From a virus: a stretch of 37,376 bases of DNA. The stretch's first letter is position 1. Each line of letters opens with the position of its first letter. The notes under the pieces were generated by a model. That model did not search any database. It saw only the letters and a list, made by a program, of their open reading frames with translations, and was not told the DNA's origin. Both the position numbers and the translations under genes were made by a program. The stretch lies in the IMG/VR virus record IMGVR_UViG_3300045988_112792; one strand, written 5' to 3'. Shown here one piece after another: positions 121 through 37,376 of the stretch.

Positions 121-333
121 ATGAAGCAAATTAGTTTGGACAACGGACACAGCTACATGGACGCGAGCGAGGCCATGACGGAGATTATGGAGCGTGGCCT
201 GTGGGAGACGGTCGTGAGCCTGATGGACGACGGTATACGCGAGGCAGTGGCGGACGATATGGCGCCCTGCAGCGAGGAAGAGTTTTTGAAGGAATATCTC
301 GCGCGTGCCAATGACGATTTGGTCGTTGGCTGA
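121..333 (+). CDS. Small, very acidic hypothetical protein (70 aa); cargo of cassette A
   Basis: ORF track 106-333. ATG at 121 sits 7 nt after GGAGGG, and the GTG at 106 overlaps that RBS. By my count about 17 D/E versus 5 K/R. No recognisable motif. Confidence 0.7.
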   Translation: MKQISLDNGHSYMDASEAMTEIMERGLWETVVSLMDDGIREAVADDMAPCSEEEFLKEYLARANDDLVVG

Positions 334-437: not shown

Positions 438-1643
438 ATGGGATATATATTGATAGGCATAGTCGCGCTGCTGCTTTTTAGTCCCCTGATACTGCTGATA
501 CATGGTAAAGCGCCGGAACCAGAACCGGAACCAGAGCCGGAACCAGAGCCGGAGCCAGAGCCGGAGCCAGAGCCGGAGCCGGAACCGGAGCCGCCTAAAC
601 CAGCTCCGCCTAAAGTGCCAGCGGCGTTGAGGCAGAATATAATTGACTGTCCGTCCGACTATACCGTAATAGACTTTGAGACTACCGGCCTTGACCCGGT
701 AACGGACGCGATAACCGAGCTGGGCGCGCTGCGCGTGCGCGACAACAAGATTTCCGCTTCGTATCAAACGCTGGTCGATCCGGGTCGCCCGCTGCCAGCG
801 AAGATAGTGGAGCTGACCGGCATTACCGACGATATGCTAAAGGGCCAGCCCAAGCTCGAGGACGTGCTGCCGTTTTTTGTGGATTTTCTGGGCGACGATA
901 TAACGGTAGGGCACAACGTAACGTTTGATCTCAAATTTTTAGCCATGGCGCGCGAAAAGTGCGGTATGCCCAAAAAGGATTATAAGTGGATAGACACCTG
1001 CGCGCCTGCGCGCATAATCTATCCGGACGCGGGAAAGTATAGTCTGGATGCGTTGGCAAAGCACTTAAAACTTGGCGAGCCTCAGCACCGCGCCAATGCC
1101 GACATGCGCGTGACATACGCCATATTTTTAAATGAAATGGCGCAGATTACCAAGTACGACCGCATTTGGCCGATGCTTAAAGTGCAGTATGACGTCGATG
1201 CGCCCGCCGACGCGCGCTCGGCATGGGCGCGCCCGACAGACGAAAAGAGTGCGGATTTAACGCCGCTAAAAAATGAGTTGCGGTGGTGTGACGATTTTGT
1301 GCGCAAATATTATTATACGGATGTGCGCGCGCTGCGCGATGATAAGTGCGACGGCCGAAGCGTGGCGGCGGGCACGTCCTGTATCGTGCTGTACAGCGAC
1401 CTCGATAAGCGCGCAAATATTTTTGACGTCGCCCACCCCGAAAAACCCATAGGCTACCTCCCCCAAAACCGCTTAGCCGACATGGTGTGCGACTATACGC
1501 ACAACGTGGACATGGTGCTGGCGACCGCCGACGCGATAAGCGCGGGCGGCGCGGTAAATATGCTGGAGATGGCCTTTTACATGGATGAGGGTCCCGCCGA
1601 TGACGACGACTTTGACGATGATGACGACTTTTCGGACGATTGA
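438..1643 (+). CDS. Membrane-anchored DEDDh (DnaQ-like) 3'-5' exonuclease with (PE)13 linker, HIRAN-like C-terminal domain and acidic tail
   Basis: RBS GGAGGG 427-432 then ATG 438. N-terminal hydrophobic helix MGYILIGIVALLLFSPLILLIHG. Exo I VIDFETTGL, Exo II GHNVTFDLKFL, Exo III HRANADMRVT. C-terminal segment ...ANIFDVAHPEKPIGYLPQNRLADMV resembles HIRAN. Tail DDDDFDDDDDFSDD. Confidence 0.8.
   Translation: MGYILIGIVALLLFSPLILLIHGKAPEPEPEPEPEPEPEPEPEPEPEPEPEPPKPAPPKVPAALRQNIIDCPSDYTVIDFETTGLDPVTDAITELGALRVRDNKISASYQTLVDPGRPLPAKIVELTGITDDMLKGQPKLEDVLPFFVDFLGDDITVGHNVTFDLKFLAMAREKCGMPKKDYKWIDTCAPARIIYPDAGKYSLDALAKHLKLGEPQHRANADMRVTYAIFLNEMAQITKYDRIWPMLKVQYDVDAPADARSAWARPTDEKSADLTPLKNELRWCDDFVRKYYYTDVRALRDDKCDGRSVAAGTSCIVLYSDLDKRANIFDVAHPEKPIGYLPQNRLADMVCDYTHNVDMVLATADAISAGGAVNMLEMAFYMDEGPADDDDFDDDDDFSDD
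513..590 (+). repeat. In-frame hexanucleotide tandem repeat (CCN GAR)x13 encoding (Pro-Glu)13
   Basis: Read directly: ccg gaa cca gaa ccg gaa cca gag ... ccg gag. Followed by PPKPAPPKVP. Confidence 0.95.
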
Positions 1644-2045: not shown

Positions 2046-3200
2046 ATGGCAGTTAAGAAGTACACGACGGCAGAACCCCGATGGCTTGAGCAGTACGGTA
2101 GATGGCAGGTCAACGTCCAAAAGGACGGACGGCGCAAAACCTTTTCGTCGTCCATCGCCGGGCGCAAGGGCAAGGCCGAAGTCATGGCGCGCGCGACAGA
2201 ATGGCTGCAGTCTATGGACGCGGATAACATCCGGCTCTATGCCGCGTGGGATCGGTTTATGGCCGATCAGCAAAAAAACACCGGCAAATCCAACTGGGTC
2301 AAGCATGACAGTCACTGGCGCACTCACATCAAGCCCACTATCCCCGACAAGCGACTGGACAGCGTGACGCCGTTTGAGTGGCAGGCGTGCATCAATCACG
2401 CGGCGCAAAATGGCGCGAGTAAACGCACTTGCATTAACGTGCGCGCGACGATTATTAGATTTAGATCGTTTTGCGAGCTTGAGCGTTTTGCGCATACTAT
2501 ACCGGCCGGTACAGTGCTCAAGGTGCCTAAAAATACTCGATTCAAAAAGCGCATTATCCTCCAGCCCGACGATCTATACCGTCTTTTTACCACGGATCGC
2601 ATTACTAAGACGGTATACGGTACGCATCTGCGTACCACGCCCATATACTATATACATGCGTGGCGATTTTTAGTTGCGACGGGCTTGCGCCCCGGCGAAA
2701 TCATACCCTTGACGCATGATAGTATCGGTAAAGGTGGCATTTTATATATTGACGGCAGCCGCAATATCTTAAACGAGCACACCGACGGCAAAAATCAAAA
2801 CGCAATCCGCAAATTTATATTGACCCCGCTTGCTTTGCGAATACTGGACGATCAGGCTGATATGCTTAAGCAGCGCGGCATAATATCGCCTTACCTTTTC
2901 CCGGCGCCGGATGGCGGTCAGATCATATCATCGCGCCTCACACGGGCATGGTGTGATACGCGCGGCAGTCTGGGCATTAAGTCTCGCATGTACGACCTGC
3001 GTCACACTTATGTCAGCGTTGTCAAGTCCGACGTCCCCGACCCACTTCTGCGCGCGACGGTTGGACATAGCACTAAGATGGACACCTATGCCGTGTATGC
3101 GCATGAGCTGGACGGCGACATGCAGCGTGCCGCCGACATGGCTGAGGTAGCTTTTGATAAGGTTTTAGGTGGTGATATTGCCAATCCAAAAACACGTTAA
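2046..3200 (+). CDS. int: Tyrosine recombinase (phage integrase)
   Basis: RBS AGGTG then ATG 2046 (ORF track 2016-3200). Catalytic signature LRPGEII (Arg), HDLRHTY (His-x-x-Arg), GHSTKMDTYAVYAH (His ... Tyr). Lies directly upstream of a tRNA-like fragment. Confidence 0.9.
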   Translation: MAVKKYTTAEPRWLEQYGRWQVNVQKDGRRKTFSSSIAGRKGKAEVMARATEWLQSMDADNIRLYAAWDRFMADQQKNTGKSNWVKHDSHWRTHIKPTIPDKRLDSVTPFEWQACINHAAQNGASKRTCINVRATIIRFRSFCELERFAHTIPAGTVLKVPKNTRFKKRIILQPDDLYRLFTTDRITKTVYGTHLRTTPIYYIHAWRFLVATGLRPGEIIPLTHDSIGKGGILYIDGSRNILNEHTDGKNQNAIRKFILTPLALRILDDQADMLKQRGIISPYLFPAPDGGQIISSRLTRAWCDTRGSLGIKSRMYDLRHTYVSVVKSDVPDPLLRATVGHSTKMDTYAVYAHELDGDMQRAADMAEVAFDKVLGGDIANPKTR

Positions 3201-3319: not shown

Positions 3320-3347
3320 TGGTGGAAGCGAGGGGAGTCGAACCCCT
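3320..3347 (-). other. 3'-terminal fragment of a tRNA or tmRNA (T-arm + acceptor 3' strand + ACCA): candidate attP core
   Basis: Minus strand reads AGGGG TTCGACT CCCCT CGCTTCC A CCA. No matching 5' acceptor strand or anticodon arm upstream, so it is a fragment. U at position 70 and A73 are compatible with tRNA-Ala or tmRNA. Confidence 0.7.
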
Positions 3348-3413
3348 AGCCAAAGCGCCGGAAAGCGTCCAAATGTAGGCACTTCACGGCGCTTTACAAA
3401 ATCCAAAAACCCG

Positions 3414-3484: not shown

Positions 3485-4393
3485 TTAATCGTTGTCTAGC
3501 GTGCAGTTGTCGTCAAGCGTGCAGCCGTCGCCTAGCTCACAGTTGACGCCCAGTTCGCAACAGTCGCCCAGCTCGCAACAACTGCCCAGCTTGCACTCGT
3601 AGCCCAGCGTGCAGTTGTTGCCCAGCTTGCACTCGTCGCCCAGCGTGCAGTGGCTGTATAGCTCGCAACCGTTGCCCAGCGTGCAGTTGTTGCCCAGTTC
3701 GCAGCACATGACCAGTTCGCAACCGCTGCCCAGCGTGCAGCCGTCGCCCAGCTTGCACCCGCCGTATAGCTCGCAACCGCTGCCCAGCGTGCAGTTGTTG
3801 CCCAGCTTGCATCCGCTGCCTAGCCTGCATCTGCTGCCCAACGTGCAGCCGTCGCCGAGCGTGCAATCGCTGCCCAGCGTGCAGTAATTGCTCAGTGCGC
3901 AACACCTACCCAGCGCGCAGTTATAGCCGAGCTCGCAGTAATCGCCCAGTTTGCAACTGCTGCCAAGCGTGCAGCCGTCGCCTAGCTCGCAACTGCCGCC
4001 CAGCGTGCAGCCGTCGCCGAGCGTGCAATCGCTGCCCAGCTCGCAACACCTGTCCAGCGTGCAGTTGTCGCCGAGCGTGCAGCCGTCGCCTAGCTCGCAT
4101 CTGAAGTTCAGCCCGCACCTGCTGCCGAGCGTGCAGCCGTCGCCAAGCTTGCAGCCGTCGCCGAGCGTGCAATCGCTGCCCAGCGTGCAGTTGTCGCCGA
4201 GCGTGCAATCGCTGCCCAGCGTGCAATTGTCGCCGAGCTCGCAGTTGTCGCCCAGCCTGCAATCGTTCGCAAAAATCAGGCGCGCGTTATCGGCGCCAAA
4301 GTCTACTTTTGTCCAATTGCCGCTGGGCAGATGTTTATACCCGCACTCATCGCGCTCGATAGCCTTAAAATCATCCTGCTCGTAACACTTCAT
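3485..4393 (-). CDS. Acidic cysteine-rich hexapeptide-repeat protein (predicted left-handed beta-helix); cargo of cassette D
   Basis: RBS AAGGAG 8 nt before ATG 4393. A 46-aa N-terminal region is followed by 42 uninterrupted LGxxCx hexapeptides (LGDNCT, LGSDCT, LGDGCT ...). About 50 Cys, about 48 D/E versus about 19 K/R by my count. No signal peptide or TM segment. Confidence 0.85.
   Translation of the reverse strand: MKCYEQDDFKAIERDECGYKHLPSGNWTKVDFGADNARLIFANDCRLGDNCELGDNCTLGSDCTLGDNCTLGSDCTLGDGCKLGDGCTLGSRCGLNFRCELGDGCTLGDNCTLDRCCELGSDCTLGDGCTLGGSCELGDGCTLGSSCKLGDYCELGYNCALGRCCALSNYCTLGSDCTLGDGCTLGSRCRLGSGCKLGNNCTLGSGCELYGGCKLGDGCTLGSGCELVMCCELGNNCTLGNGCELYSHCTLGDECKLGNNCTLGYECKLGSCCELGDCCELGVNCELGDGCTLDDNCTLDND
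3500..4255 (-). repeat. Degenerate 18-bp tandem repeat x42 (coding, underlies the hexapeptide array)
   Basis: Units such as CAGCGTGCAGCCGTCGCC / GAGCGTGCAATCGCTGCC recur without interruption. They generate long shadow ORFs in other frames. Confidence 0.9.
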
Positions 4394-4504
4394 GCTTTTT
4401 TCTCCTTGCCCGGCGCTTTCCCGCGCCCGCGGCCTTGACTGTCCGTGCCTATATTATACTACTTTCCGCCGCGATTGTCAATACCAAATCGCACATTTTT
4501 TGCG
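4394..4504 (-). promoter_or_regulatory. Promoter-leader cassette copy D
   Basis: On the minus strand: TTGACA (4476-4481), 17-nt spacer, TATAAT (4453-4458), ATAGGCACGGACA, hairpin GCCGCGGGCGCGGGAAAGCGCCGGGC, then AAGGAG and ATG. Confidence 0.8.
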
Positions 4505-4546
4505 CCAAAATACAAATAATCCCCCTGCCAAAGCAAGGGGATTATT
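4505..4546 (-). terminator. Intrinsic terminator closing the late/post-lysis operon
   Basis: AATAATCCCC ... GGGGATTATT, a 10-bp stem (4515-4524 / 4537-4546). TGTATTTTGG follows on the minus strand. Confidence 0.6.
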
Positions 4547-4560
4547 TGAAGCCGCGCTTA

Positions 4561-4875
4561 TTACCTCCGCTTATAAGCCTCCAGCAGCGCGCGCACGTCG
4601 GCGGTATCTTTGGCCACGTCGCCCAAATCGGCGTCGTACACCATCCGCGCGCCCGGCACCATCGCCGCGTCCATGCCATCGTCGGCCATGCGCGCCATGC
4701 AGTTCTGCGCCATCGACATGCCGCCGTCGTTAAATTTGAGGTGCGCGTCTGCCATGTCGCAGCACCAGTCGGCGGCCTGCCGACTTTTGTCGCGCAGCTC
4801 GTGCGCCTTGGTCGCGTACTTGCGCGCCTCGCGGACGTTTCCGCGCAGCACATCCATTATCCAGCGCATCATCAT
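4561..4875 (-). CDS. Hypothetical protein (104 aa)
   Basis: ORF with ATGA start/stop overlap with the upstream gene. No recognisable motif. Confidence 0.6.
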   Translation of the reverse strand: MMMRWIMDVLRGNVREARKYATKAHELRDKSRQAADWCCDMADAHLKFNDGGMSMAQNCMARMADDGMDAAMVPGARMVYDADLGDVAKDTADVRALLEAYKRR

Positions 4876-5306
4876 GCCAGACGCACCACCCTTACGCTGG
4901 TCAGGTCGGCCGTCGCGCCCGCGCCGCTGGCCTGCAAAGTAAGTGAGTTGACGTTGGCGCAGTTAGGCGCGATGTACCGCGCCGTGCGCGTGCTTATCGC
5001 GTACTGCCCGGCGGCGACGCTTATAGTGCGCAGCGTCTCGGGCAGGGCCACGCCGTTAAGGTATATCTGCACCGTGACAGTACCGGCGGCGGTCGCGGTC
5101 AAGTTAACGTCGCCGTCGATCTGATACGTGCCGCCCGCGCGCACGTTGACCGCCGCGCCGTTAAGCGACAGCGCGCAGCCGGTATCTGTCACGGTCGCGC
5201 CCAGATTAAGCGGCGCGGCAGTCGCAGTCAGCGTCTGCGCCGCGGTATTATACGCCTCCAGCACAGACTTGTAATGTGGGTTTTTTAGGTTGCAGCAGCA
5301 AGCCAT
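4872..5306 (-). CDS. BclA C-terminal-domain-like (C1q/TNF-like jelly-roll) protein
   Basis: Pattern GTYQIDGDVNLTATAAGTVTVQIYLNGVALPE ... SVRVVRLA resembles the BclA/C1q-like C-terminal domain. Unusual MACCCN N-terminus. Confidence 0.45.
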   Translation of the reverse strand: MACCCNLKNPHYKSVLEAYNTAAQTLTATAAPLNLGATVTDTGCALSLNGAAVNVRAGGTYQIDGDVNLTATAAGTVTVQIYLNGVALPETLRTISVAAGQYAISTRTARYIAPNCANVNSLTLQASGAGATADLTSVRVVRLA

Positions 5307-6772: not shown

Positions 6773-7180
6773 TTAATTCATCCGCGCGGCCCATCCGACC
6801 GCGCGGCTTGTGACGAACAACATCTCGTCAGCGTCAAGACCTGTCGCTTCGTACAGGCCTTTAGCGGCGGCGACGTTCCACCGCTCGTCGGCGTCCACGT
6901 CGCCGCCGATGCAGTCAAGTGAGAAGCGCCATTCGTGCCCGGTCGCCGCGACAGTAATCTCGGCGCTCCATCTGTCGCCGAAATCCCCGCAGCTATTATC
7001 AAACCAGTCGACGATAACATCACCGACCGGCGTTGCCCAGACCGCGCCGCCCGCAGGCTGGAAGTACCCGCCGCCGTTGTTGCAGGTGTCGCCATCTGCA
7101 AAGGGGTTGGTTTCGCAGCCCCAAACGCTTATCATGCGGGGAGTGGTGGTGGTATTAATGGTATTATTCATAGTGTTCAT
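6773..7180 (-). CDS. Hypothetical protein (135 aa); cargo of cassette E
   Basis: RBS GGAGGG then ATG 7180. Thr/Asn-rich N-terminus, several Cys and Trp, no recognisable motif. Confidence 0.75.
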   Translation of the reverse strand: MNTMNNTINTTTTPRMISVWGCETNPFADGDTCNNGGGYFQPAGGAVWATPVGDVIVDWFDNSCGDFGDRWSAEITVAATGHEWRFSLDCIGGDVDADERWNVAAAKGLYEATGLDADEMLFVTSRAVGWAARMN

Positions 7181-7295
7181 TTTTGTCCCTCCATGCCCGG
7201 CGCTTTTTCGCGCCCGCAGCCTTGACTGTCCGTGCCTATATTATACTACTTTACGCCGCGATTGTCAATACCAAATCACACATTTTTTGCAACAA
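7181..7295 (-). promoter_or_regulatory. Promoter-leader cassette copy E
   Basis: On the minus strand: TTGACA (7263-7268), 17-nt spacer, TATAAT (7240-7245), ATAGGCACGGACA, hairpin GCTGCGGGCGCGAAAAAGCGCCGGGC, GGAGGG. About 90% identical to copy D over about 115 bp. Confidence 0.8.
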
Positions 7296-7330
7296 AATAC
7301 AAAAATCCCCCGGCCATATCGACCGGGGGA
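7296..7330 (-). terminator. Intrinsic terminator after the lysis cassette / small HTH gene
   Basis: TCCCCCGG ... CCGGGGGA stem (7306-7313 / 7323-7330). TTTTTGTATTTT follows on the minus strand. Confidence 0.75.
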
Positions 7331-7341
7331 ATCTCCAACTC

Positions 7342-9496: not shown

Positions 9497-9877
9497 CTAC
9501 TTTTCCGTCGGCGGCACCGGCCACACCACGCTTGCCGGGAACCCCGCCTGCTTGGTCACGTCCCTAAGCCGCTGCCGATACTCCGCCCATGCGGTACGCG
9601 CGGCATATGTGGACGGATAGTCGGTCGCCTGCGTGTAGTCGCTTGCCGCCAGCAGCGCGTCCCGCTTTGCGCGCACATCGGCGGCCATCTGCTCGTAGTC
9701 GGGCGCGGCCTCGCCGCCGCTGCCGTCCGCTTCAGCGGGCGCGCCCGTCACGCCCACTATCCCGTCATACTCATCCTGCGTAATCCAGCCCTTGATTACG
9801 GCATTTTTGAGCATTTTTTTTGTCCAAAGCTGCTTAGCATAGTACCCCTTGACCAGTTCATACCTCTTGCTTGCCAT
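9497..9877 (-). CDS. XkdX-like N-terminus fused to a tail-fibre assembly (chaperone)-like C-terminus
   Basis: GGGAG RBS 8 nt before ATG 9877. N-terminal YYAKQLWTKKMLKNAVIKGWITQDEYDGIV (XkdX-like). C-terminal RDALLAASDYTQATDYP ... YRQRLRDVTKQAGFPASVVWPVPP (tail-fibre assembly motif). Confidence 0.55.
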   Translation of the reverse strand: MASKRYELVKGYYAKQLWTKKMLKNAVIKGWITQDEYDGIVGVTGAPAEADGSGGEAAPDYEQMAADVRAKRDALLAASDYTQATDYPSTYAARTAWAEYRQRLRDVTKQAGFPASVVWPVPPTEK

Positions 9878-11903
9878 CCGTCTCACTCCCTTCTATGCCC
9901 GTCGGCATGTCCATGCCGCTATCCGCGTCTGCATCGTCTACCGCCGTCAGGTCGTCCACGTCCACGTCTGCCATCATGGCGACGTAATCCAGCTTTGCAG
10001 CCTGCGCCTCTGCCGTGCTCGCCGTGGTCTGGGGCGGCGTGGGGGCAGTTATAGTCAGAGTGTCTGCGTCGGTTATGATTGCGTTTGTGCCAGCCAGCGC
10101 AAGCACCGTCTGCCCGCCCGTTGCCGTAAAAGGCACGGGCGTAGCCAGCTTGTACGCCACCTGCGCGCCAATCGTAGGAGTAGCCCCTGCCGCATACTCA
10201 TCCCTGTCGCTGATCCACTTACCCGGCAGGGTCTCGCCTGCATAGCTATCGATATGGCCCCACGTCTCTTGCCCCTGTCCTGTGATTGTATCGATTATGC
10301 CACCATAAATGGTGCGAGGCAGTGTCAGCAAGGATTGCTTGCCCGCATATGGCTGATATTCTGCGGGCACTGCCTCGGGCGCATATACGCCTATCTTTAG
10401 GGTCATGTCTACCATCACGCCGGGCACCCAGTCCTTTGCATCCACCTGCAAGGCTATAACATTCTCCTTTTGTGTCCTAAGGCCATATAGTTTGTGCGAC
10501 AAATATGTGCCACTCGTTACTGTGCTGGTGATTTTTAGCCCACGTCCACTTAGCAAGTAATTATTCAGGTATACTATCGCAAAGCTCCGAGCGCCGCTTA
10601 CGTTGTATGTGCCCTTGATTCGGATCGTGCTCTCGCCGATGGGCTCAATTGTTAAACCGTAGGCCTCTATGGAGGAGGTGTCAATATCGTCCGGATTTAG
10701 CAAGTTTGCATTTGATTCCCGCAGCGTTACAAGCTTAGTTCCTGTTATCGGCCTTATATTATCCGGCGACGGTGTGCCGCTGCCCTCCTGCTTAGGCTCC
10801 CAGCTCGCACTTAGCTCCAAAGGATACCCCTCAAGCGCCTCTATGACCACAGGATTACCTGTCACGGTCTGCATCGGCAGTAGCTTATCCACCGTATTCT
10901 TACTCGACCACGCCTTACCCTCCGCGATAACCGTATCGTCGATAATCCCCGCCGCATCCTGCGCGGCCTTTTCAGCCGCCTCCGCACTCGCCGCCGCCGC
11001 GCTCGCAGACTGCGCCGCCGCATCCTTACTGCCCGCCGCCGCCGCGGCGCTGCCCGCCGCATCGCTCGCCGCCGCGCCCGCCGCCGTCTGTGCCGCCTGT
11101 GCCGCGTCCCGCGCCGCCGCCGATTGGCTCGCGCTTCCCGCCGCCGCCGATGCAGACCCCGCCGCGTCCGTAGCCGATTGCGCCGCGCTGCTCTTACTGC
11201 CCGCCGCATCGCTCGCCGATTCAGCCGCCGCCCGCGCCGATCCTGCCGCCGCGTCCGCCGACTCCTTGACGCTATCCAGCGTGCCCGCCGCCGCCGCCGC
11301 GCTTTCCGCTGACGCTTTGGCCGATGTATCTGCCGCCGCCGCCGACTGCGCCGCTGCGCTTGCCGACCCGCTCGCCGCGTCCGCCGACGTTGCCGCGCTC
11401 GCGGCCGACTTGCTCGCCGCACTTGCGCTGCCCGCCGCCGCGTTTGCACTCGACTGCGCCGCCGCCGCCGATCCCGCCGCCGCCGCCGCGCTTTCCTGCG
11501 CCGCCGCCATCGCGCCCTGCGCCGCGTCGCTCGCGTCCAGCACGTCCTTGACCCAGCCGCTTTGCGTATCGGTATCGGGCGGGGTCAGGCTGGGCGCTAT
11601 CGCCGTGGCCGCGATTACCGACTTAGCCACCTTATCATCGACCGTGGCCACTATCTCAATCGCGCCCAGCCCCGCGACTGCCATCGCGTCCATGTCGGGC
11701 GACCACGTGATAACGCCCGTGTCGCTTACGTCCGCCTTGACTATGCGCGCCGTCTCGCCGCGCGTGCGCCGCTGCATCAGCGTCAGCCGCGCGCCCGGAT
11801 AGTCGTTCAGCATCTTCGCGCAGTCGATCTCGACCGCGCGCGCGTACTGCTCGCCCTGTCTGCCCAGCGGTATCGACTTGGGCAGGTCGTATATATCGTA
11901 CAT
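9858..11903 (-). CDS. Tail fibre / receptor-binding protein with a long Ala/Ser-rich coiled region
   Basis: RBS GGAGGGG before ATG 11903 (ORF track extends to 12017). About 200 aa of SA/AA low-complexity repeats (DNA 10947-11537). Position is downstream of the distal tail genes. Confidence 0.7.
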   Translation of the reverse strand: MYDIYDLPKSIPLGRQGEQYARAVEIDCAKMLNDYPGARLTLMQRRTRGETARIVKADVSDTGVITWSPDMDAMAVAGLGAIEIVATVDDKVAKSVIAATAIAPSLTPPDTDTQSGWVKDVLDASDAAQGAMAAAQESAAAAAGSAAAAQSSANAAAGSASAASKSAASAATSADAASGSASAAAQSAAAADTSAKASAESAAAAAGTLDSVKESADAAAGSARAAAESASDAAGSKSSAAQSATDAAGSASAAAGSASQSAAARDAAQAAQTAAGAAASDAAGSAAAAAGSKDAAAQSASAAAASAEAAEKAAQDAAGIIDDTVIAEGKAWSSKNTVDKLLPMQTVTGNPVVIEALEGYPLELSASWEPKQEGSGTPSPDNIRPITGTKLVTLRESNANLLNPDDIDTSSIEAYGLTIEPIGESTIRIKGTYNVSGARSFAIVYLNNYLLSGRGLKITSTVTSGTYLSHKLYGLRTQKENVIALQVDAKDWVPGVMVDMTLKIGVYAPEAVPAEYQPYAGKQSLLTLPRTIYGGIIDTITGQGQETWGHIDSYAGETLPGKWISDRDEYAAGATPTIGAQVAYKLATPVPFTATGGQTVLALAGTNAIITDADTLTITAPTPPQTTASTAEAQAAKLDYVAMMADVDVDDLTAVDDADADSGMDMPTGIEGSETDGKQEV

Positions 11904-11914
11904 GCTTACCCCTC

Positions 11915-12166
11915 CTACTGCTTGGGATTGCCTATCGGATACTCCACCACATACGTGCCGCTTATCTTGACTATCTTGACGCGCTGTCCCGCCGCAAACG
12001 TCAGCGCCGCGTTGCACTTATAGTGCTTTGCCGTCGGCTCGCTGTCGCCGTCAAAGATGAGCGATATGCCGTCGCTGTACACCGCGCCCACCGTGGCCAG
12101 CTGCGCCGCCGCGGGCGCGGCGCGTTCATCCTCCAGCGACTTTTTGGTTTGATAGTCCATTATCAT
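11915..12166 (-). CDS. Small tail/baseplate-associated protein
   Basis: ORF translationally coupled to its neighbours within the tail module. No specific motif. Confidence 0.5.
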   Translation of the reverse strand: MIMDYQTKKSLEDERAAPAAAQLATVGAVYSDGISLIFDGDSEPTAKHYKCNAALTFAAGQRVKIVKISGTYVVEYPIGNPKQ

Positions 12167-32542: not shown

Positions 32543-32811
32543 CACCCGCCCACCACCTTGAGTACCGGCGGTTCGCACTCTGCGTATCCGTCCGGCGGGA
32601 AGTAATCGTATATCTCTCTGAGGGGCAACCCCATCCAGCGCATGATCTCGTATGCCTCGCCCATGTCCCACGAGGCCACGCCGCGTATGCACTTGCTTAC
32701 GTAGTCCACGCTGCGCCTCAGATGCACGGCCACGTCGCTTTGGAGCAAGTCGCGCTCCATCATCGCCGCACGCAATTTGGCGTATGGCCGCGTACGTCTT
32801 TGCTTAGTCAT
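32542..32811 (-). CDS. Small HTH (XRE-like) protein
   Basis: RDLLQSDVAVHLRRSVDYVSKCIRG helix-turn-helix pattern. Confidence 0.55.
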   Translation of the reverse strand: MTKQRRTRPYAKLRAAMMERDLLQSDVAVHLRRSVDYVSKCIRGVASWDMGEAYEIMRWMGLPLREIYDYFPPDGYAECEPPVLKVVGG

Positions 32812-33091
32812 GATACCCTAGCCCCCTCCTCTTGGCGCGCCGCGAACCGTTGCCGCCGTGATCGCTGTAGCACGGGTCGAGCTGGATGAAGCCTCCGTAT
32901 ACGGTCGCTTCGTCCGGCAGTAAGCGCCGCGCGTCCAGCTCATACTGTCGAAAATGCTTATACACACTCTCGACACTCCACAGCTTGCGCGCACGCTCGC
33001 GCGCGTCGGGCAAGTTGTCGGCCAGCAGGTCGATCGCCCAGTGATGCCTGCGGATTGTGCGCGTCTCAAAAGTCACACGATACCTGTCCAT
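32804..33091 (-). CDS. Hypothetical protein (95 aa; alternative start at 33184)
   Basis: Excellent RBS GGGAGG 8 nt before ATG 33091. The longer ORF-track form would start inside the sRNA terminator hairpin. Confidence 0.55.
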   Translation of the reverse strand: MDRYRVTFETRTIRRHHWAIDLLADNLPDARERARKLWSVESVYKHFRQYELDARRLLPDEATVYGGFIQLDPCYSDHGGNGSRRAKRRGLGYHD

Positions 33092-33105
33092 TTCTATATC
33101 CTCCC

Positions 33106-33134
33106 TTGACAACGCTGGCTCGGAGGTGTATAAT
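33106..33134 (+). promoter_or_regulatory. Perfect consensus promoter on the + strand inside the minus-strand early operon
   Basis: TTGACA 33106-33111, exactly 17 nt, TATAAT 33129-33134. Confidence 0.6.
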
Positions 33135-33140
33135 ACGTAT

Positions 33141-33217
33141 GTCAAACGTTGACCCTCCAGAGTGTCAGCTTTGATTGTCCGCATAGCGCCCTCGACACCT
33201 ACGGGGCGCTATTTTTT
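33141..33217 (+). ncRNA. Predicted ~77-nt antisense small RNA (promoter-to-terminator unit)
   Basis: Start inferred about 7 nt after the -10. Internal GTCAA ACG TTGAC hairpin. Terminator TAGCGCCC ... GGGCGCTA (33184-33211) + T6 (33212-33217). No RBS or credible ORF. Confidence 0.45.
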
Positions 33218-33221
33218 AGTA

Positions 33222-33455
33222 TCATTCGTCGTATGATTCAATCGCCCTTTTGGCGGCTTTCCATTTCATCATGCGATGAAAATTCTTGTCAATCTCCGTT
33301 TGGGCGATTTCCGTTAGCACCGGCTTTAGGGCTGATACTTCATATTTTTCGCCGCGCCTGATGTGCGCCTTGTCAAACGTCTTTGCCACCGCCCAATCTA
33401 CTGTCGCATATGACAGGTCAAACATTTTCGCTATGCCGCCGACGGTCATTTTCAT
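33222..33455 (-). CDS. Small HTH protein (Cro/excisionase-type)
   Basis: RBS AAGGAGGAG. TVGGIAKMFDLSYATVDWAV helix-turn-helix. Confidence 0.6.
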   Translation of the reverse strand: MKMTVGGIAKMFDLSYATVDWAVAKTFDKAHIRRGEKYEVSALKPVLTEIAQTEIDKNFHRMMKWKAAKRAIESYDE

Positions 33456-33750: not shown

Positions 33751-33779
33751 TTGATTTTGTCCTGAATGTGTGATAATAT
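33751..33779 (+). promoter_or_regulatory. Repressor promoter (PRM analogue)
   Basis: TTGATT 33751-33756, 17-nt spacer, TAATAT 33774-33779. Overlaps the TGTGTGAT motif. Confidence 0.5.
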
Positions 33780-33804
33780 ATATGTATGGATTGGAGGTGA
33801 TACA

Positions 33805-34347
33805 ATGGCAGACACAATTAATGCTCGCTTTAGGGCTTTGCGCAAACGGCTCGACTTAACTATCGCGCAAATGGCGGATGTGCTGGGCTTGTCGCCGTCC
33901 GGCATATCGGCGATCGAGTGTGCACAGCGTAACGTTACTGATAAGCACATTCGGCTTTTGGCAAGTGCATATCCGCGCCTTAATGTCGAGTGGCTTAAAA
34001 GCGGCGAGGGCGATATATTTTTGCCTGAAAGCGACCATACAGGCAGTATAGATGATCTATGCGCTCAATACGGTCTTGACAGTATGGCCGCGTCTATGCT
34101 GCGCAGCTATGTCCAGCTTGACGCCGAGCATCGTCAGATGATACACGACTGGCTTATGGCGTGGCATGACGACTATGACAAGCGCAAGGCGCGCACCAGC
34201 GGCGGCGATGGCCAGACCGCCGACGATGCAGCGCCCTCCAGCGCAGACCCGGACGCCGACTTTAAACGGCAGGTGCTTGAGGGTCGCGCGCGGCACGAGG
34301 CATACATGGCCGCCCAGCGCGACGCCGAAAGCAAGCAGGCGCAGTAG
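33805..34347 (+). CDS. XRE-family HTH repressor (CI analogue), no S24 peptidase domain
   Basis: RBS GGAGGTG then ATG 33805. LTIAQMADVLGLSPSGISAIECAQRNV HTH. Divergent from the early operon. The C-terminal half lacks a Ser/Lys autoprotease signature. Confidence 0.8.
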   Translation: MADTINARFRALRKRLDLTIAQMADVLGLSPSGISAIECAQRNVTDKHIRLLASAYPRLNVEWLKSGEGDIFLPESDHTGSIDDLCAQYGLDSMAASMLRSYVQLDAEHRQMIHDWLMAWHDDYDKRKARTSGGDGQTADDAAPSSADPDADFKRQVLEGRARHEAYMAAQRDAESKQAQ

Positions 34348-34360
34348 CGACCGACCAATG

Positions 34361-34390
34361 ACCGCCCCACTTTGGGGCGGTTCTTTTTTT
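34361..34390 (+). terminator. Intrinsic terminator after the repressor gene
   Basis: ACCGCCCCA CTT TGGGGCGGT followed by TCTTTTTTT. Confidence 0.85.
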
Positions 34391-34410
34391 ATGCGAGCGG
34401 CAAAATTTTT

Positions 34411-34498
34411 TTGAAAAAAGCGCTTTAGGGTATTGACATTCGCGGCGGAAAGTAGTATAATATAGGCACGGACAATCAATAAATGGAGGACGAGAACG
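34411..34498 (+). promoter_or_regulatory. Promoter cassette copy C (lacks the leader hairpin)
   Basis: TTGACA 34433-34438, 17 nt, TATAAT 34456-34461, ATAGGCACGGACA, then GGAGG and ATG 34499. Confidence 0.8.
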
Positions 34499-35116
34499 AT
34501 GTGTGACGAGATTAAGATTACAAAGGTAGCTGACGACAAGATAGAGGTTCGCACCCCGTACAACCCGCAGTTTGTATCTAAAATAAAGACTGCGGGCGCG
34601 CGCTGGAACGCCATTGATAAGGCGTGGACGATGCACGCCGCCAACATCGACGTGGCGCGCGAAATCCTGCGCGCGGTGTATGGCCGCGACGATATGCCCG
34701 CGGCGGACGAAAAGCTGGTGCGCGTGCGCGTCACCGCGCTGCAAAACATCAGCGCAGACCGCGGGCCGATAGTCCTGCTGGGGCGTATCATCGCTTCCGC
34801 GCGCGGCCGCGATTCCGGCGCGCGCGTCGGTGAAGGCGTTGCGTTTATAGATGGAAAGCCGCAGAGCGGCGGCAGCGTGAAGAACTGGACGACTGAGATT
34901 AGCGAGGGTAGCATTTTCGTGGTGGCCGACGTACCCACCACGCTGCTTGGCGAGCTGGATGAGACCGGCTGGCGTGGGCAGAAGCTGTATCGGTACGAAA
35001 TCATTGACGACGACCGTGACGAGCAGCTCCGCAAGCTGCAGGCGCGCCGCGAAGAGCTGGCCGCCGCCTTGGCCGATATTGATGCGCAGATTAATGCGCT
35101 TAAAGGAGGTAACTAA
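34499..35116 (+). CDS. Hypothetical protein; DUF5710-like N-terminus + C-terminal coiled coil
   Basis: VRTPYNPQFVSKIKTAGARWNAIDKAWTM resembles the (K)ALGARWD...KxW motif. C-terminal LRKLQARREELAAALADIDAQINALK. Confidence 0.65.
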   Translation: MCDEIKITKVADDKIEVRTPYNPQFVSKIKTAGARWNAIDKAWTMHAANIDVAREILRAVYGRDDMPAADEKLVRVRVTALQNISADRGPIVLLGRIIASARGRDSGARVGEGVAFIDGKPQSGGSVKNWTTEISEGSIFVVADVPTTLLGELDETGWRGQKLYRYEIIDDDRDEQLRKLQARREELAAALADIDAQINALKGGN

Positions 35117-35118
35117 AA

Positions 35119-35667
35119 ATGAAGTTTGATATTTTTGCCGTTGATAACGTTAACGGCGGTCGGTGGTTTTTCGATGTGCGTCCGGATGCAGATTGCATCC
35201 GGTACGCGGTGGACATCCCCGACGCGTACGACCCCGTTCGCGGCGACGATGGGCATATATCGTTGACGCGCGAGGGCGAAGAGTATTCGCTGGACGATAT
35301 TTTAACGGCCAACGACATCAATCAACCAGTCTTTAATTGGCCCTACATCACGGGAGACTGCGATGCGCCATGCGTTGCTTTGGAGGTGTTACCCAGCGGC
35401 GAGCGCGAGCCGTTGTCATGGCCGGAGGGCGTTGACGATTTGATAAGCCGTTTTGCGTCAATGGGGCTGCGCTTTAGCATCCACCCCGAGACCGGGCAGC
35501 TGGTAATCAGACCCGAGGATAGCGCCGCGCGGTTTGTGCGCAAGATGTATCCCAAAGAGCTTGAGGTCATCCGGTATGGTCTCAAAAACCGCTGGAATCA
35601 AAGGCGTTACGCTGAGCTTGCGCGGCAGCAGTCAACCGAAAAAGCCGCCGAAAAGGATGGGGAGTGA
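35119..35667 (+). CDS. Hypothetical protein (182 aa)
   Basis: RBS AAAGGAGG. Tightly coupled to flanking genes. No motif recognised. Confidence 0.65.
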   Translation: MKFDIFAVDNVNGGRWFFDVRPDADCIRYAVDIPDAYDPVRGDDGHISLTREGEEYSLDDILTANDINQPVFNWPYITGDCDAPCVALEVLPSGEREPLSWPEGVDDLISRFASMGLRFSIHPETGQLVIRPEDSAARFVRKMYPKELEVIRYGLKNRWNQRRYAELARQQSTEKAAEKDGE

Positions 35668-35669
35668 CG

Positions 35670-36245
35670 ATGATGATCTCCCTGAAGGACTATGCCGACA
35701 AGATCGGCAAGCCCTACCCCTTGGTCTACCAAAAAGCCGTGCGCGGCGGCTTTGAGACCGCGCAAAAGGTCGGCTCGCGCTGGGTGATAGAGGCCAGCGA
35801 GCCGTGGATTGATATGCGCGCAAAAGCAGCGCGCTACCCCGCCGCCGTGCCTGCCGATGCCGACGACTTGGTGCCCGTCGCTGACTACGCGCGCGACCGT
35901 GGTATAGACGTGCGCAACGTCGAGCGCAAGGCCGCCCGCGGCTCACTTAAGACGGCGCGCAAGATTGGGGATCGCTTGTACGTCAGCGCAAGCGAGCCAT
36001 ACACCGACGCGCGGACGCGCTCCCCGCTTGCGGCGCAGCGTGACACAAGCGCCGAGCCACGCCTGATACCGCTTGTTGAATACAGCGAGCGGCTGGGCAA
36101 GCACAAATCGCACATTTTACGTAAGGCTGCGCGCGGCGATTTTAAGACCGCGCGCAAGATCGGCGGGTGCTGGTACATCTCCGCCGATGAGCCTTATGTT
36201 GACCGACGCGTCATTTCTGGTGCGTACAAGGATTGGCGCAAATAG
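35670..36245 (+). CDS. Protein built from three tandem excisionase/MerR-type winged-HTH repeats
   Basis: Three ~55-aa units, each with (D/E)YA..(I/L)G ... RKAARG.(F/L)KTA(R/Q)K(I/V)G..(W/L)(Y/V).(S/A)(A/S).EP(Y/W).D.R. GGGGAG RBS before ATG 35670. Confidence 0.7.
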   Translation: MMISLKDYADKIGKPYPLVYQKAVRGGFETAQKVGSRWVIEASEPWIDMRAKAARYPAAVPADADDLVPVADYARDRGIDVRNVERKAARGSLKTARKIGDRLYVSASEPYTDARTRSPLAAQRDTSAEPRLIPLVEYSERLGKHKSHILRKAARGDFKTARKIGGCWYISADEPYVDRRVISGAYKDWRK

Positions 36246-36278
36246 TTTTAAGATACGAATAAATGGGAGAGTGTAGTT

Positions 36279-36677
36279 ATGACTTTGAATGACGTTATGG
36301 CCGCCGGGAAGCGCGTGGTCGGTTTGTGTGCTGGACGACATCAGCTGCCGGTGGATGAATATATTTACGGCGAAATCAAGGACGTTCTTGATTTCGCCGG
36401 ATTGCTTCATATCGCGGACAAATATGTCCACGAACATTGTAATCCGCGCAATGCGATCGGCAGCGCTATTAACGGCTGGGATGATACTAAAATAGTTGTT
36501 GGCGAGCCGCTGAATGTGATCGTGACGGGACTAACGCCATGCACGGCAGCCGTCATGTATGCTTGCGCGTGTTACGGCGTTGACTTAACGCTATGGCACT
36601 ACGATCGCGAGGCCGACGACTATAAGCCTCAGTCGTTTCGTTTCGCCATAACCCCCAATCGTTTCGCTTCGCCATAA
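36279..36677 (+). CDS. Hypothetical protein (132 aa)
   Basis: RBS GGGAGAG. The 3' end runs through a 22-bp direct repeat. Confidence 0.6.
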   Translation: MTLNDVMAAGKRVVGLCAGRHQLPVDEYIYGEIKDVLDFAGLLHIADKYVHEHCNPRNAIGSAINGWDDTKIVVGEPLNVIVTGLTPCTAAVMYACACYGVDLTLWHYDREADDYKPQSFRFAITPNRFASP

Positions 36678-36680
36678 CCC
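36633..36680 (+). repeat. 22-bp direct repeat x2 (1 mismatch) separated by CCAA
   Basis: TCGTTTCGTTTCGCCATAACCC (36633-36654) and TCGTTTCGCTTCGCCATAACCC (36659-36680). The stop codon lies in copy 2. Confidence 0.9.
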
Positions 36681-36692
36681 TGCAATAGTTTA

Positions 36693-36722
36693 GTGTCGCT
36701 CGTATGAGCGGCACTTTTTTTT
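36693..36722 (+). terminator. Intrinsic terminator (copy 1 of a duplicated terminator)
   Basis: GTGTCGCTC GTAT GAGCGGCAC + T8. Identical stem-loop at 37237-37258. Confidence 0.85.
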
Positions 36723-36829
36723 GTAAAAATGCGCCTTTGCATATTGACATTCGCGGCGCAAAGTAGTATAATATAGGCACGGACAATCAAAGCCGCGGGC
36801 GCGAAAAAGCGCCGGGCGTGGAGGCGGCA
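36723..36829 (+). promoter_or_regulatory. Promoter-leader cassette copy B
   Basis: TTGACA 36744-36749, 17 nt, TATAAT 36767-36772, ATAGGCACGGACA, hairpin 36792-36817, GGAGG, ATG 36830. Confidence 0.8.
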
Positions 36830-37195
36830 ATGAAATATAAAGTAGTGATCGAAACCAAAAGCCGGTCGCTGTGCGGCACAGTAACCGCGCAGCTGGAGCC
36901 GACATACAAGCACGTAAGCATCCCGTCCGGCGCTTACGCCACGCCTGCCGACTTTTGCCGCAAGGCATTGGACGGCCTCAAGGATCTGGCGCGCGACGAC
37001 ATAGAGCGCGCCATCGACGAGGCCGGTATGGACGCGGCGCGCGCAGGCTTTGAGGCCGGGCGCGACACGTACTATAGCATACGCTTGTACGCGGTAGACG
37101 CGGACGGCGAGCCGATTAACCCGCGGCGCGCGGATGCGCATAAAGGGTTTTGGACGTCCAAAGTGTTTGGGCAGGAGTATGTGACGCGTCGATGA
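36830..37195 (+). CDS. Hypothetical protein (121 aa); cargo of cassette B
   Basis: ATG 36830 after GGAGG (ORF track 36818). No motif recognised. Confidence 0.65.
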   Translation: MKYKVVIETKSRSLCGTVTAQLEPTYKHVSIPSGAYATPADFCRKALDGLKDLARDDIERAIDEAGMDAARAGFEAGRDTYYSIRLYAVDADGEPINPRRADAHKGFWTSKVFGQEYVTRR

Positions 37196-37236
37196 GCCTT
37201 ACGTCAATCGGCGCGTATCAGGTGCAAATAGATTTA

Positions 37237-37267
37237 GTGTCGCTCGTATGAGCGGCACTTTTTTTTT
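37237..37267 (+). terminator. Intrinsic terminator (copy 2)
   Basis: GTGTCGCTC GTAT GAGCGGCAC + T9. The T-run continues into the terminal repeat. Confidence 0.85.
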
Positions 37268-37376
37268 GCAAAAATGCGTTTTTAGCTATTGACATTCGCG
37301 GCAAAAAGTAGTATAATATAGGCACGGACAAGATAAGCCGCGGGCGCGAAAAAGCGCCGGGCGTGGAGGGTAAGAA
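37258..37376. repeat. Second copy of the terminal direct repeat (equals 1-119; contains the duplicate image of promoter cassette A)
   Basis: Identical to 1-119 by direct comparison. Confidence 0.95.

Follow-up and report, generated by a model that had tools for sequence, protein, structure and literature searches.

The viral DNA analysed here, IMG/VR record IMGVR_UViG_3300045988_112792 (37,376 nt; the whole stretch is referred to as the window), contains an array of six small genes, named A to F, that lies on the lysogeny side of the genome between a CI-like repressor and an exonuclease followed by an integrase. We propose, with moderate confidence, that this array is an anti-defence and moron island composed of independently exchangeable units, and not one multi-component system. 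The organization of the array agrees with a preliminary description of the DNA, which had recognised a series of self-contained accessory units: all six open reading frames (ORFs), the gaps of 2, 2 and 33 nt in the four-gene operon A–D, the terminators and the three promoter cassettes on the plus strand were found where that description had placed them. Bases 1–120 of the window are an exact copy of bases 37257–37376; this 120-nt terminal overlap is that of a circular assembly, so that the third cassette spans the circular junction and the array runs over it, as had been suggested. The flanking repressor, exonuclease and integrase are borne out by matches to HTH_3, RNase_T and Phage_integrase, respectively. 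The elements of the array are the following.

34402–34498, plus strand: cassette 1, with its promoter at 34433–34461 and a short leader without hairpin, GGAGG
34499–35116, plus strand: gene A, ORF of 205 amino acids (aa)
35119–35667, plus strand: gene B, ORF of 182 aa, pI 4.7
35670–36245, plus strand: gene C, ORF of 191 aa, pI 9.8; alternative GTG at 35664
36279–36677, plus strand: gene D, ORF of 132 aa
36692–36722, plus strand: terminator after D (hairpin 36692–36715), 10-bp stem and T-run
36723–36829, plus strand: cassette 2, with its promoter at 36744–36772 and the leader hairpin and Shine-Dalgarno sequence at 36792–36824
36830–37195, plus strand: gene E, ORF of 121 aa; alternative GTG at 36818
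37187–37230, plus strand: C-like 3' remnant, of which 37187–37216 is 80% identical to 36182–36211 at the 3' end of C
37236–37266, plus strand: terminator after E (hairpin 37236–37259), identical to that after D, 10-bp stem and T-run
37267–37376 (= 11–120), plus strand: cassette 3, with its promoter at 37289–37317 (= 32–60) and the leader hairpin and Shine-Dalgarno sequence at 37337–37369 (= 80–112)
121–333, plus strand: gene F, 70 aa, Pfam PF22147
345–374, plus strand: terminator hairpin after F, 12-bp stem

The link to anti-defence is provided by gene F. The protein matches Pfam family PF22147 (AcrIC5) with 41.5 bits against a gathering score of 27 (E = 1.5e-10), residues 28–61 being aligned to positions 10–43 of the 53 in the profile, and the identical gene on other contigs is assigned to the same AcrIC5 family in an independent precomputed annotation. 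No AcrIC5 match was obtained with the reversed F sequence or with four shuffled ones. F contains 17 acidic (D+E) and 5 basic (K+R) residues and has a pI of 4.05. On the basis of this homology, F is classified as an acidic anti-CRISPR of the AcrIC5 family, and the earlier view that no function could be assigned from motifs does not hold for this gene. AcrIC5 stops the type I-C Cascade from binding its target DNA and has been described as highly acidic. Orthologues are reported in Firmicutes and Actinobacteria (PMC7913775), and the homologue of a gut Bifidobacterium prophage has been validated experimentally (PMC10651486). By analogy with the characterised protein, F would block target-DNA binding by type I-C Cascade. 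Matches of F to armadillo-repeat structures in the PDB were sums of weak repeat matches, none of them individually significant, and were discarded.

F is monocistronic and is enclosed between two terminators. Its unit does not correspond to an acr-aca operon (acr, anti-CRISPR gene; aca, anti-CRISPR-associated gene), as it holds no helix-turn-helix (HTH) Aca gene and no inverted repeat in the promoter core; the only palindrome in the F cassette is the leader hairpin, and the only HTH gene nearby, C (HTH_17), sits in another unit. Loci with AcrIC5 include acrIC5-aca1 of Pseudomonas and acrIC5-racrIC1 of a Bifidobacterium prophage (PMC7913775, PMC10651486). The F unit resembles these loci in the Pfam family of its gene product, which is likewise small and very acidic, in its strong promoter and in being carried by a temperate phage, but it differs from them in the absence of an aca1-type gene and of a repeat-like RNA anti-CRISPR (Racr) downstream.

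The three cassettes of the array have two further counterparts in the window, both on the opposite strand.

4382–4550, minus strand: cassette 4, consisting of a terminator, a promoter at 4453–4481 and a leader hairpin at 4401–4433
7169–7340, minus strand: cassette 5, consisting of a terminator, a promoter at 7240–7268 and a leader hairpin at 7188–7220

All cassettes follow an intrinsic terminator and are near-identical, each being built from an A-rich upstream tract, a promoter and an invariant initial transcribed region (ATAGGCACGGACA), and their promoters are perfect sigma-70 promoters (12/12, TTGACA-17-TATAAT). Most copies add a 9-bp hairpin in the 5'-untranslated region, 2–3 nt ahead of GGAGG; in most copies the leader reads GCCGCGGGCGCGAAAAAGCGCCGGGC, and a dinucleotide of variable sequence separates it from the GGAGG Shine-Dalgarno sequence. 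The 29-nt promoter core has six matches in the window, which represent five distinct copies (0.00 expected from 100 shuffles). When eight cassettes of the window and its relatives are aligned, they are invariant from TATTGACA through the -10 box to GGACA and have three or four variable positions in the spacer, with three unrelated types of upstream terminator; the terminators and the cargo differ. Cassettes 4 and 5 are 88% identical over 136 nt. The five cassettes flank the integration module on both sides: cassette 4 adjoins the phage attachment site (attP) and drives a 302-aa Cys-rich hexapeptide-repeat protein (3485–4393, minus strand), and cassette 5 directly follows the lysis genes and drives a six-gene post-lysis operon that extends from 7180 down to about 4561 on the minus strand.

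In no cassette does the promoter-to-leader core contain TGTGTGAT or TGTGATAATATAT, the motifs of the cro/cI intergenic region, and control of the cassettes by the repressor is accordingly unsupported; one TGTGTGAT is located just upstream of the -35 box of cassette 5, at 7275–7282 on the minus strand. The repressor and exonuclease genes have a promoter of another type, with TGTGATAATATAT. The promoters of the cassettes are probably used by host RNA polymerase both at DNA entry and in the lysogen, the timing that anti-defence genes need, and constitutive expression is predicted for both states.

The 23 copies of the leader hairpin precede at least 10 different cargo genes and are spread over 3 or more backbones, and 98.9% of the cells of the 9-bp stem are paired across these copies. 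The stem shows one compensatory series (GC to GU to AU) and three one-sided G.U changes, a covariation that is suggestive only. In a 54-kb phage type (L019, L033 and L034; contigs are denoted by L numbers) the leader occurs without the promoter as an intergenic element, with a 96-aa or a 73-aa gene in one slot and either D or an 87-aa acidic protein in the other. The latter is found in L034, where the hairpin at 2426–2458 on the minus strand precedes an extremely acidic protein of 87 aa in the slot that D occupies in L019 and L033. This protein has no Pfam match and is a candidate DNA-mimic-type anti-defence gene. No riboswitch or other known cis-acting RNA was found: no Rfam family reached its gathering score, and the matches in the region were terminator look-alikes. 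We infer that the leader hairpin may act at the RNA level.

A comparison of near relatives reveals that the units are gained, lost and replaced individually. L008 is 100% identical to the window over 34300–36824, that is, to the leader of cassette 2, and lacks E; its junction is chimeric, with the promoter, spacer variant and leader of cassette 2 joined to the Shine-Dalgarno sequence of cassette 3 and gene F. Conversely, E is present and F absent in L001 and L028, in which E directly precedes the terminator that follows F in the window, so that each of the two genes is missing between the same neighbours. The slot of F contains a 150-aa gene in L024. The slot of the hexapeptide-repeat protein contains versions of 242, 269 or 297 aa in relatives or, in L001, an unrelated gene of 134 aa. 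A further trace of exchange is the C-like remnant directly before the terminator after E, which may go back to a donor that had an HTH_17 gene ahead of the F cassette. The insertions and deletions and one chimeric junction are thus observed directly, and the junction in L008 indicates exchange of the kind known from promoter-early stem-loop (PeSL) cassettes of T4. In the mechanism that we envisage, portable homology is provided by the cassettes, leaders and terminators that recur in the genome, and recombination between these repeats would delete, insert and swap cargo, by analogy with the PeSL cassettes of T4-like phages.

The preliminary description had singled out the operon A–D as a candidate multi-component system, and this proposal did not survive a co-occurrence analysis: the four genes do not occur together outside the lineage of the window, an outcome that the description itself had named as refuting. 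Homologues of A that are 46–71% identical occur without B, C and D in four contexts. In L014 and L015, A is a lone moron on the opposite strand, equipped with a promoter, a leader hairpin and a terminator of its own; in L016 a homologue (P0011) lies between two integrases, and in L018 a homologue lies one gene away from ArdC within a run of small genes. In L028, A itself is replaced by an unrelated 83-aa gene next to a B that is 54% identical and a C that is 93% identical. Homologues of D without A, B and C occur in two other backbones, the L019 phage and the L026 element. Because A–D do not co-occur beyond the lineage, they do not form one four-component system. The broader suggestion of a novel immunity or anti-defence island therefore stands on its anti-defence side, supported directly by the homology of F and by the association of D with an anti-CRISPR homologue in another phage, and falls in its multi-component reading of A–D; the operon should not be treated as a four-part system only.

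Gene D behaves as a unit by itself. Among its 25 homologues the motifs GLCAGRH..PV and VVTGLT are invariant. The D of the 54-kb phage L019 is about 85% identical in amino acids and 80% in DNA and is preceded by the same leader, and the terminator that follows it in the window also follows the homologue, with 3 mismatches. There D adjoins a homologue of AcrVA2 (PDB code 7ci1, E = 3.5e-11); a Pfam label of "AcrVA2-like" for this neighbour was not reproduced with the local Pfam, and the homology was confirmed by the 7ci1 match instead. In L026, an element with Tn916-type Xis and Int, D is 84% identical. A, B and C are absent from both. L024 belongs to the lineage of the window and has B and C that are 97–98% identical, and a D that is only 83% identical. 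D appears to be a horizontally mobile single-gene module that is found in two separate acr neighbourhoods.

The AlphaFold2 (AF2) model of D, one of the two models generated (A and D), has a pLDDT (predicted local distance difference test) of 85.5 and consists of a small Rossmann-like α/β-domain with conserved glycine-rich loops after the β-strands. A Foldseek search of the PDB placed Cam1, Cap5-SAVED, Csa3, Can2, Csm6 and ring nucleases at the top, with weak values (E = 0.04–0.8; TM-score, template modelling score, 0.40–0.49). The CARF ring nucleases and CARF or SAVED sensors (Sso2081/Crn1, 7ygh; Sis0455, 7z55; Cam1, 8t65; Csa3, 2wte; Cap5, 8fmh) are thus the nearest neighbours of the model, weakly so, and D differs from them in having fewer helices than a canonical CARF domain and no sequence-profile match. 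A profile of D searched against the PDB returned nothing relevant. Its weakly CARF-like modelled fold makes D a candidate for the binding or degradation of cyclic-oligonucleotide signals.

The remaining genes are less informative. The protein A is composed of a HARP/DUF5710-type N-terminal domain, a strongly conserved β-domain (GRDSGARVG...SGGSVKNW) and a long C-terminal helix (residues 172–203). It belongs to phrog_18108 (E = 8e-29), a PHROG without known function, and has 63 homologues. Its AF2 model (pLDDT 90.7) had no full-length match among PDB folds; in BFVD it retrieved full-length uncharacterised phage homologues, and the N-terminal domain resembled those of HARP, DUF5710 and helicase proteins. 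The DUF5710-like and coiled-coil character proposed for A stands at the level of the family, 27 of 44 members of which match DUF5710 (best E = 1e-4), and is consistent with the helix of the model, but the protein of the window does not itself match DUF5710. A is probably a DNA-binding-type protein with a HARP/DUF5710-like domain and a coiled coil. C consists of three tandem winged-helix repeats of the Xis/Cox-type (HTH_17) that are approximately 40% identical to each other; Pfam HTH_17 (E = 3e-7) and a PHROG of Cox-like excisionases and repressors (E = 5e-7), together with the internal repeats, confirm the triple winged-HTH architecture predicted for it. Within the set, the DNA-binding regulator is most plausibly C.

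B has no match in Pfam, PHROG, PADLOC, NCBIfam or the PDB and only 6 homologous clusters, all with at least 54% identity, a distribution that restricts it to this phage lineage. For E, a search of 1.84 billion representatives yielded essentially nothing beyond its own cluster, and sequence searches of Pfam, PHROG, PADLOC, NCBIfam and the PDB gave no match. B and E are presumably lineage-restricted ORFans. Seven repeated stretches in P0097, a 637-aa protein with no other relationship to gene E, match residues 84–108 of its product (E = 7e-7). NCBIfam and PDB sequence searches with A, B, C, E and F gave nothing useful. A scan with PADLOC models, of the kind that the preliminary description had recommended, provided no support either: PADLOC-DB v2 assigned no family to A–F at E ≤ 1, its matches being confined to the repressor and the exonuclease.

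Several observations weigh against the anti-defence island that we favour. F alone has family-level homology to a known anti-defence protein, over 34 of 53 profile positions, and A, B, C and E match none of the anti-defence or defence models searched. The N-terminal domain of A and the Xis-type domains of C would fit roles in replication, recombination or regulation equally well. All structural matches of D have E ≥ 0.04 and TM-scores below 0.5, with none at E ≤ 0.001, and no CARF sequence family was found for it, a Pfam search over 19 members giving chance matches only. B, C and D are adjacent in every lineage member seen; as this adjacency reflects shared ancestry, it is not independent evidence of a system, and a functional unit of the three is conceivable. 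The identity of the cassettes could stem from recent duplication or gene conversion rather than from selection. The leader hairpin does not exceed shuffled sequence in stability (z from -0.7 to -1.5), and its covariation depends on a single pair. Activity in lysogens is deduced from the promoter sequences. Taken gene by gene, the case for an anti-defence role is of moderate strength for D and weak for A, B and E, and the recombination mechanism would account for exchanges of which the products are seen.

A bolder form of the anti-defence island, to which we give a low probability, would unite these elements in a plug-and-play counter-defence platform that is formed by the cassette and the leader and shared by a group of gut phages. 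The ORFans A, B, D and E, together with the 83-, 87-, 96-, 134- and 150-aa genes of the relatives, would then be mostly undescribed anti-defence proteins. D would be the first member of a new viral family of minimal CARF-like proteins that counter type III CRISPR or cyclic-oligonucleotide-based anti-phage signalling (CBASS) by sequestering or cleaving the cyclic oligonucleotides that serve as alarm signals. C, with its three covalently linked Xis-type domains, would shut off all five cassettes after an initial burst, its target being either the conserved DNA close to the promoter or the RNA of the leader hairpin. If this is true, the 33-nt leader would be a search handle for new anti-defence genes.

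Other explanations assign the operon to the prophage itself. The operon, or at least B-C-D, might be a prophage defence or superinfection-exclusion system that protects the lysogen, with C or A sensing foreign DNA and D a nucleotide signal. The position directly downstream of the repressor, on the lysogeny strand and behind a strong promoter, is compatible with this idea, as are the cohesion of B-C-D in all lineage members seen, the origin of the fold matches of D in sensor domains of defence systems and the PADLOC matches (DEDDh and PDC-S48) of the neighbouring exonuclease. It is nevertheless unlikely, because A–D have no PADLOC match and include no recognisable effector (nuclease, TIR, pore or NTPase), A and D each occur alone elsewhere, and what D neighbours elsewhere is anti-defence (the AcrVA2 homologue) and not defence. 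Equally doubtful is a role of the operon in the DNA transactions or regulation of the prophage, in which C would be a covalent Xis trimer that serves as recombination directionality factor or a Cox-like switch, A a DNA-binding accessory, and B and D their partners. The repeats of C do match HTH_17 and the PHROGs of Cox-like excisionases/repressors and of excisionases, the N-terminal domain of A resembles HARP/DUF5710 domains found on helicases, topoisomerases and primases, the A homologue P0011 lies between two integrases, and the window yielded no other excisionase. It would, however, be odd for an excisionase to be expressed from a constitutive consensus promoter on the lysogeny strand, A is replaceable (L028), and D has been swapped between unrelated backbones with different integrases; moreover, a small HTH gene in the early lytic operon (33222–33455, minus strand) may be an alternative excisionase.

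A different timing of expression was also considered, namely that the units are ordinary early lytic genes whose consensus promoters are silenced in the lysogen and act only during takeover. PeSL promoters of T4-like phages are early promoters (PMC2839356), and anti-CRISPRs are needed first at DNA entry. Moreover, an integrated copy with host flanks was seen in none of the 23 A-carrying contigs read, all of at most 50 kb, and the sampled population may be largely replicating phage. This account is improbable given that the units are transcribed away from the lytic operon and in the same direction as the repressor and integrase, that motifs of the cro/cI operator region do not recur in the cassettes, and that two of them lie downstream of the lysis genes by attP, a classic position for lysogenic conversion. 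By far the least probable of the alternatives is that the leader hairpin is itself a Racr, a solitary mimic of a CRISPR repeat. It was suggested by the stem-loop followed by GCGTGGA in three window copies, which bears a superficial likeness to the layout of a type I-C repeat, and by the location of RacrIC1 11 nt downstream of the acrIC5 homologue in a Bifidobacterium prophage (PMC10651486). Only the GGAG of the Shine-Dalgarno sequence is conserved after the stem, however, and other copies read CAAGGAG, CATGGAG, CACGGAG or CGAGGAA; none of the Rfam CRISPR-DR models matched even at E ≤ 10, the element is always immediately 5' of a start codon, and its motif is found in 0 of 185,579 species representatives. 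The Racr assignment was rejected on the conservation of the Shine-Dalgarno sequence alone 3' of the stem and on the missing CRISPR-DR match.

The favoured anti-defence island shares features with several known systems. PeSL cassettes have been described in T4-like myoviruses (Arbiol et al. 2010, PMC2839356; Comeau et al. 2014, PMC4122927). The cassettes of the window resemble them as composites of a terminator stem-loop and a strong sigma-70 promoter that are present several times per genome and concentrated at non-essential ORFans, and in that insertions, deletions and replacements between close relatives end in the repeats. The two have no sequence relationship and different carriers, a small temperate gut siphovirus here and large lytic myoviruses in the case of PeSLs; in addition, the present cassette includes the invariant initial transcribed region and a separable hairpin with Shine-Dalgarno sequence in the 5'-untranslated region, and its copies flank the integration module. 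As the genome is a 37-kb temperate one of siphovirus type without homology to T4-type PeSLs, the cassette is an analogue of PeSLs and not a member of them.

Lambdoid morons, reportedly set out by Juhala and Hendrix in 2000, are genes with their own promoter and terminator inserted between conserved genes. E and F, each consisting of promoter, one gene and terminator and each present or absent between conserved neighbours in near-identical relatives, conform to this scheme, except that all morons share one cassette here, whereas the promoters of lambdoid morons are unrelated. Mobile elements also carry anti-defence islands, such as the leading regions of conjugative elements with ArdC. Similarities to these are the runs of small genes on one strand, the mixture of known anti-defence genes with unknown ones and the A homologue near ArdC in L018; unlike them, the present array belongs to a phage lysogeny module and not to a conjugative leading region, and it has no single-stranded DNA promoters.

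Anti-defence genes are hard to find, being small, fast-evolving and without homologues. In this setting, the AcrIC5-family gene provides an anchor in an uncultured gut phage that is seen on hundreds of contigs, and D, which hops at high identity and lies beside an AcrVA2 homologue elsewhere, is a good guilt-by-association candidate with a testable biochemical hypothesis. The cassette and leader mark cargo slots on several phage backbones and appear to mediate exchange. Shuffling of the PeSL type is known from lytic T4-like phages; with this locus, it would also be represented in a temperate human-gut phage. As a simple sequence query, the leader could also retrieve more candidate cargo.

The array is bordered by the following genes and elements.

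33805–34347, plus strand: CI-like repressor, 180 aa in public assemblies; Pfam HTH_3 (E = 6e-9) and PHROG repressor families
34360–34392, plus strand: terminator after the repressor (hairpin 34360–34382), 10-bp stem with 7 GC pairs and T-run
438–1643, plus strand: DEDDh (DnaQ-like) exonuclease; RNase_T, E = 2e-33
2046–3200, plus strand: tyrosine integrase; Phage_integrase and phrog_1, E = 6e-39
3320–3412, minus strand: attP core, a copy of the 3' end of a transfer-messenger RNA (tmRNA) gene; Rfam tmRNA, E = 6e-6

The longest ORF of the repressor begins at 33766. In the relative L002 the repressor (1830–2381, compared with 33805–34347 of the window) is only 60% identical and has a divergent N-terminal HTH, whereas A and C are 94% and B 85% identical; repressor divergence beside a conserved cargo operon looks like an immunity swap. 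The exonuclease contains an N-terminal hydrophobic segment, a (PE)n linker and an acidic tail, and matches the PADLOC families "DEDDh, Cas-associated" (E = 5e-39) and PDC-S48, a candidate defence family (E = 2e-27). From these matches it may be a defence or exclusion nuclease of the prophage. The 13-mer TGTGATAATATAT occurs only at 396–408, in the exonuclease promoter (382–410), and at 33769–33781, in the repressor promoter, which suggests that the exonuclease is co-regulated with the repressor. A perfect (12/12) sigma-70 promoter that is unrelated to the cassettes was found at 33106–33134 on the plus strand, antisense within an early lytic gene (32804–33184, minus strand). It is directed at the cro-like and repressor genes, with weak terminator-like hairpins at 33190–33256, 60–120 nt downstream, and may be a source of antisense RNA or an establishment-type promoter.

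The phage is a circular temperate siphovirus of 37.3 kb with an integrase from human-gut metagenomes. It corresponds to a complete circular genome of approximately 37,256 bp, ENA contig k119_186706, and the k119 in the name fits a circular assembly. Its nearest terminases are those of Butyrivibrio phages, with 60% amino acid identity, and no relatives were found at the DNA level among 50,697 phage records. The tmRNA match of attP is below the gathering score, being a fragment, and ARAGORN finds no whole tmRNA gene. Because attP carries this 3'-end fragment, the phage probably integrates into ssrA. The A protein, the cassette, the leader and two exact patterns of the attP/tmRNA end (29 and 40 nt) were absent from 185,579 species genomes, the attP patterns, which included the encoded CCA, being possibly too strict.

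Further observations concern the cargo of cassettes 4 and 5 and the structural genes. The protein encoded at 3485–4393 on the minus strand is made up almost entirely of hexapeptide (left-handed β-helix) repeats, and its DNA shows about 34 copies of an 18-nt period. The operon of cassette 5, downstream of holin and endolysin in a position typical of lysogenic conversion, encodes six small proteins, several with CCC or CxC motifs, including a BclA_C-like (TNF-fold) protein at 4872–5306 (E = 1.6e-6, under the Pfam cut-off). Finally, a stretch with 71% GC at 10933–11541, consisting of degenerate periodic repeats of 21/42 nt, lies inside the ORF 9858–12017 on the minus strand, a structural gene of 719 aa in the tail/fibre region.

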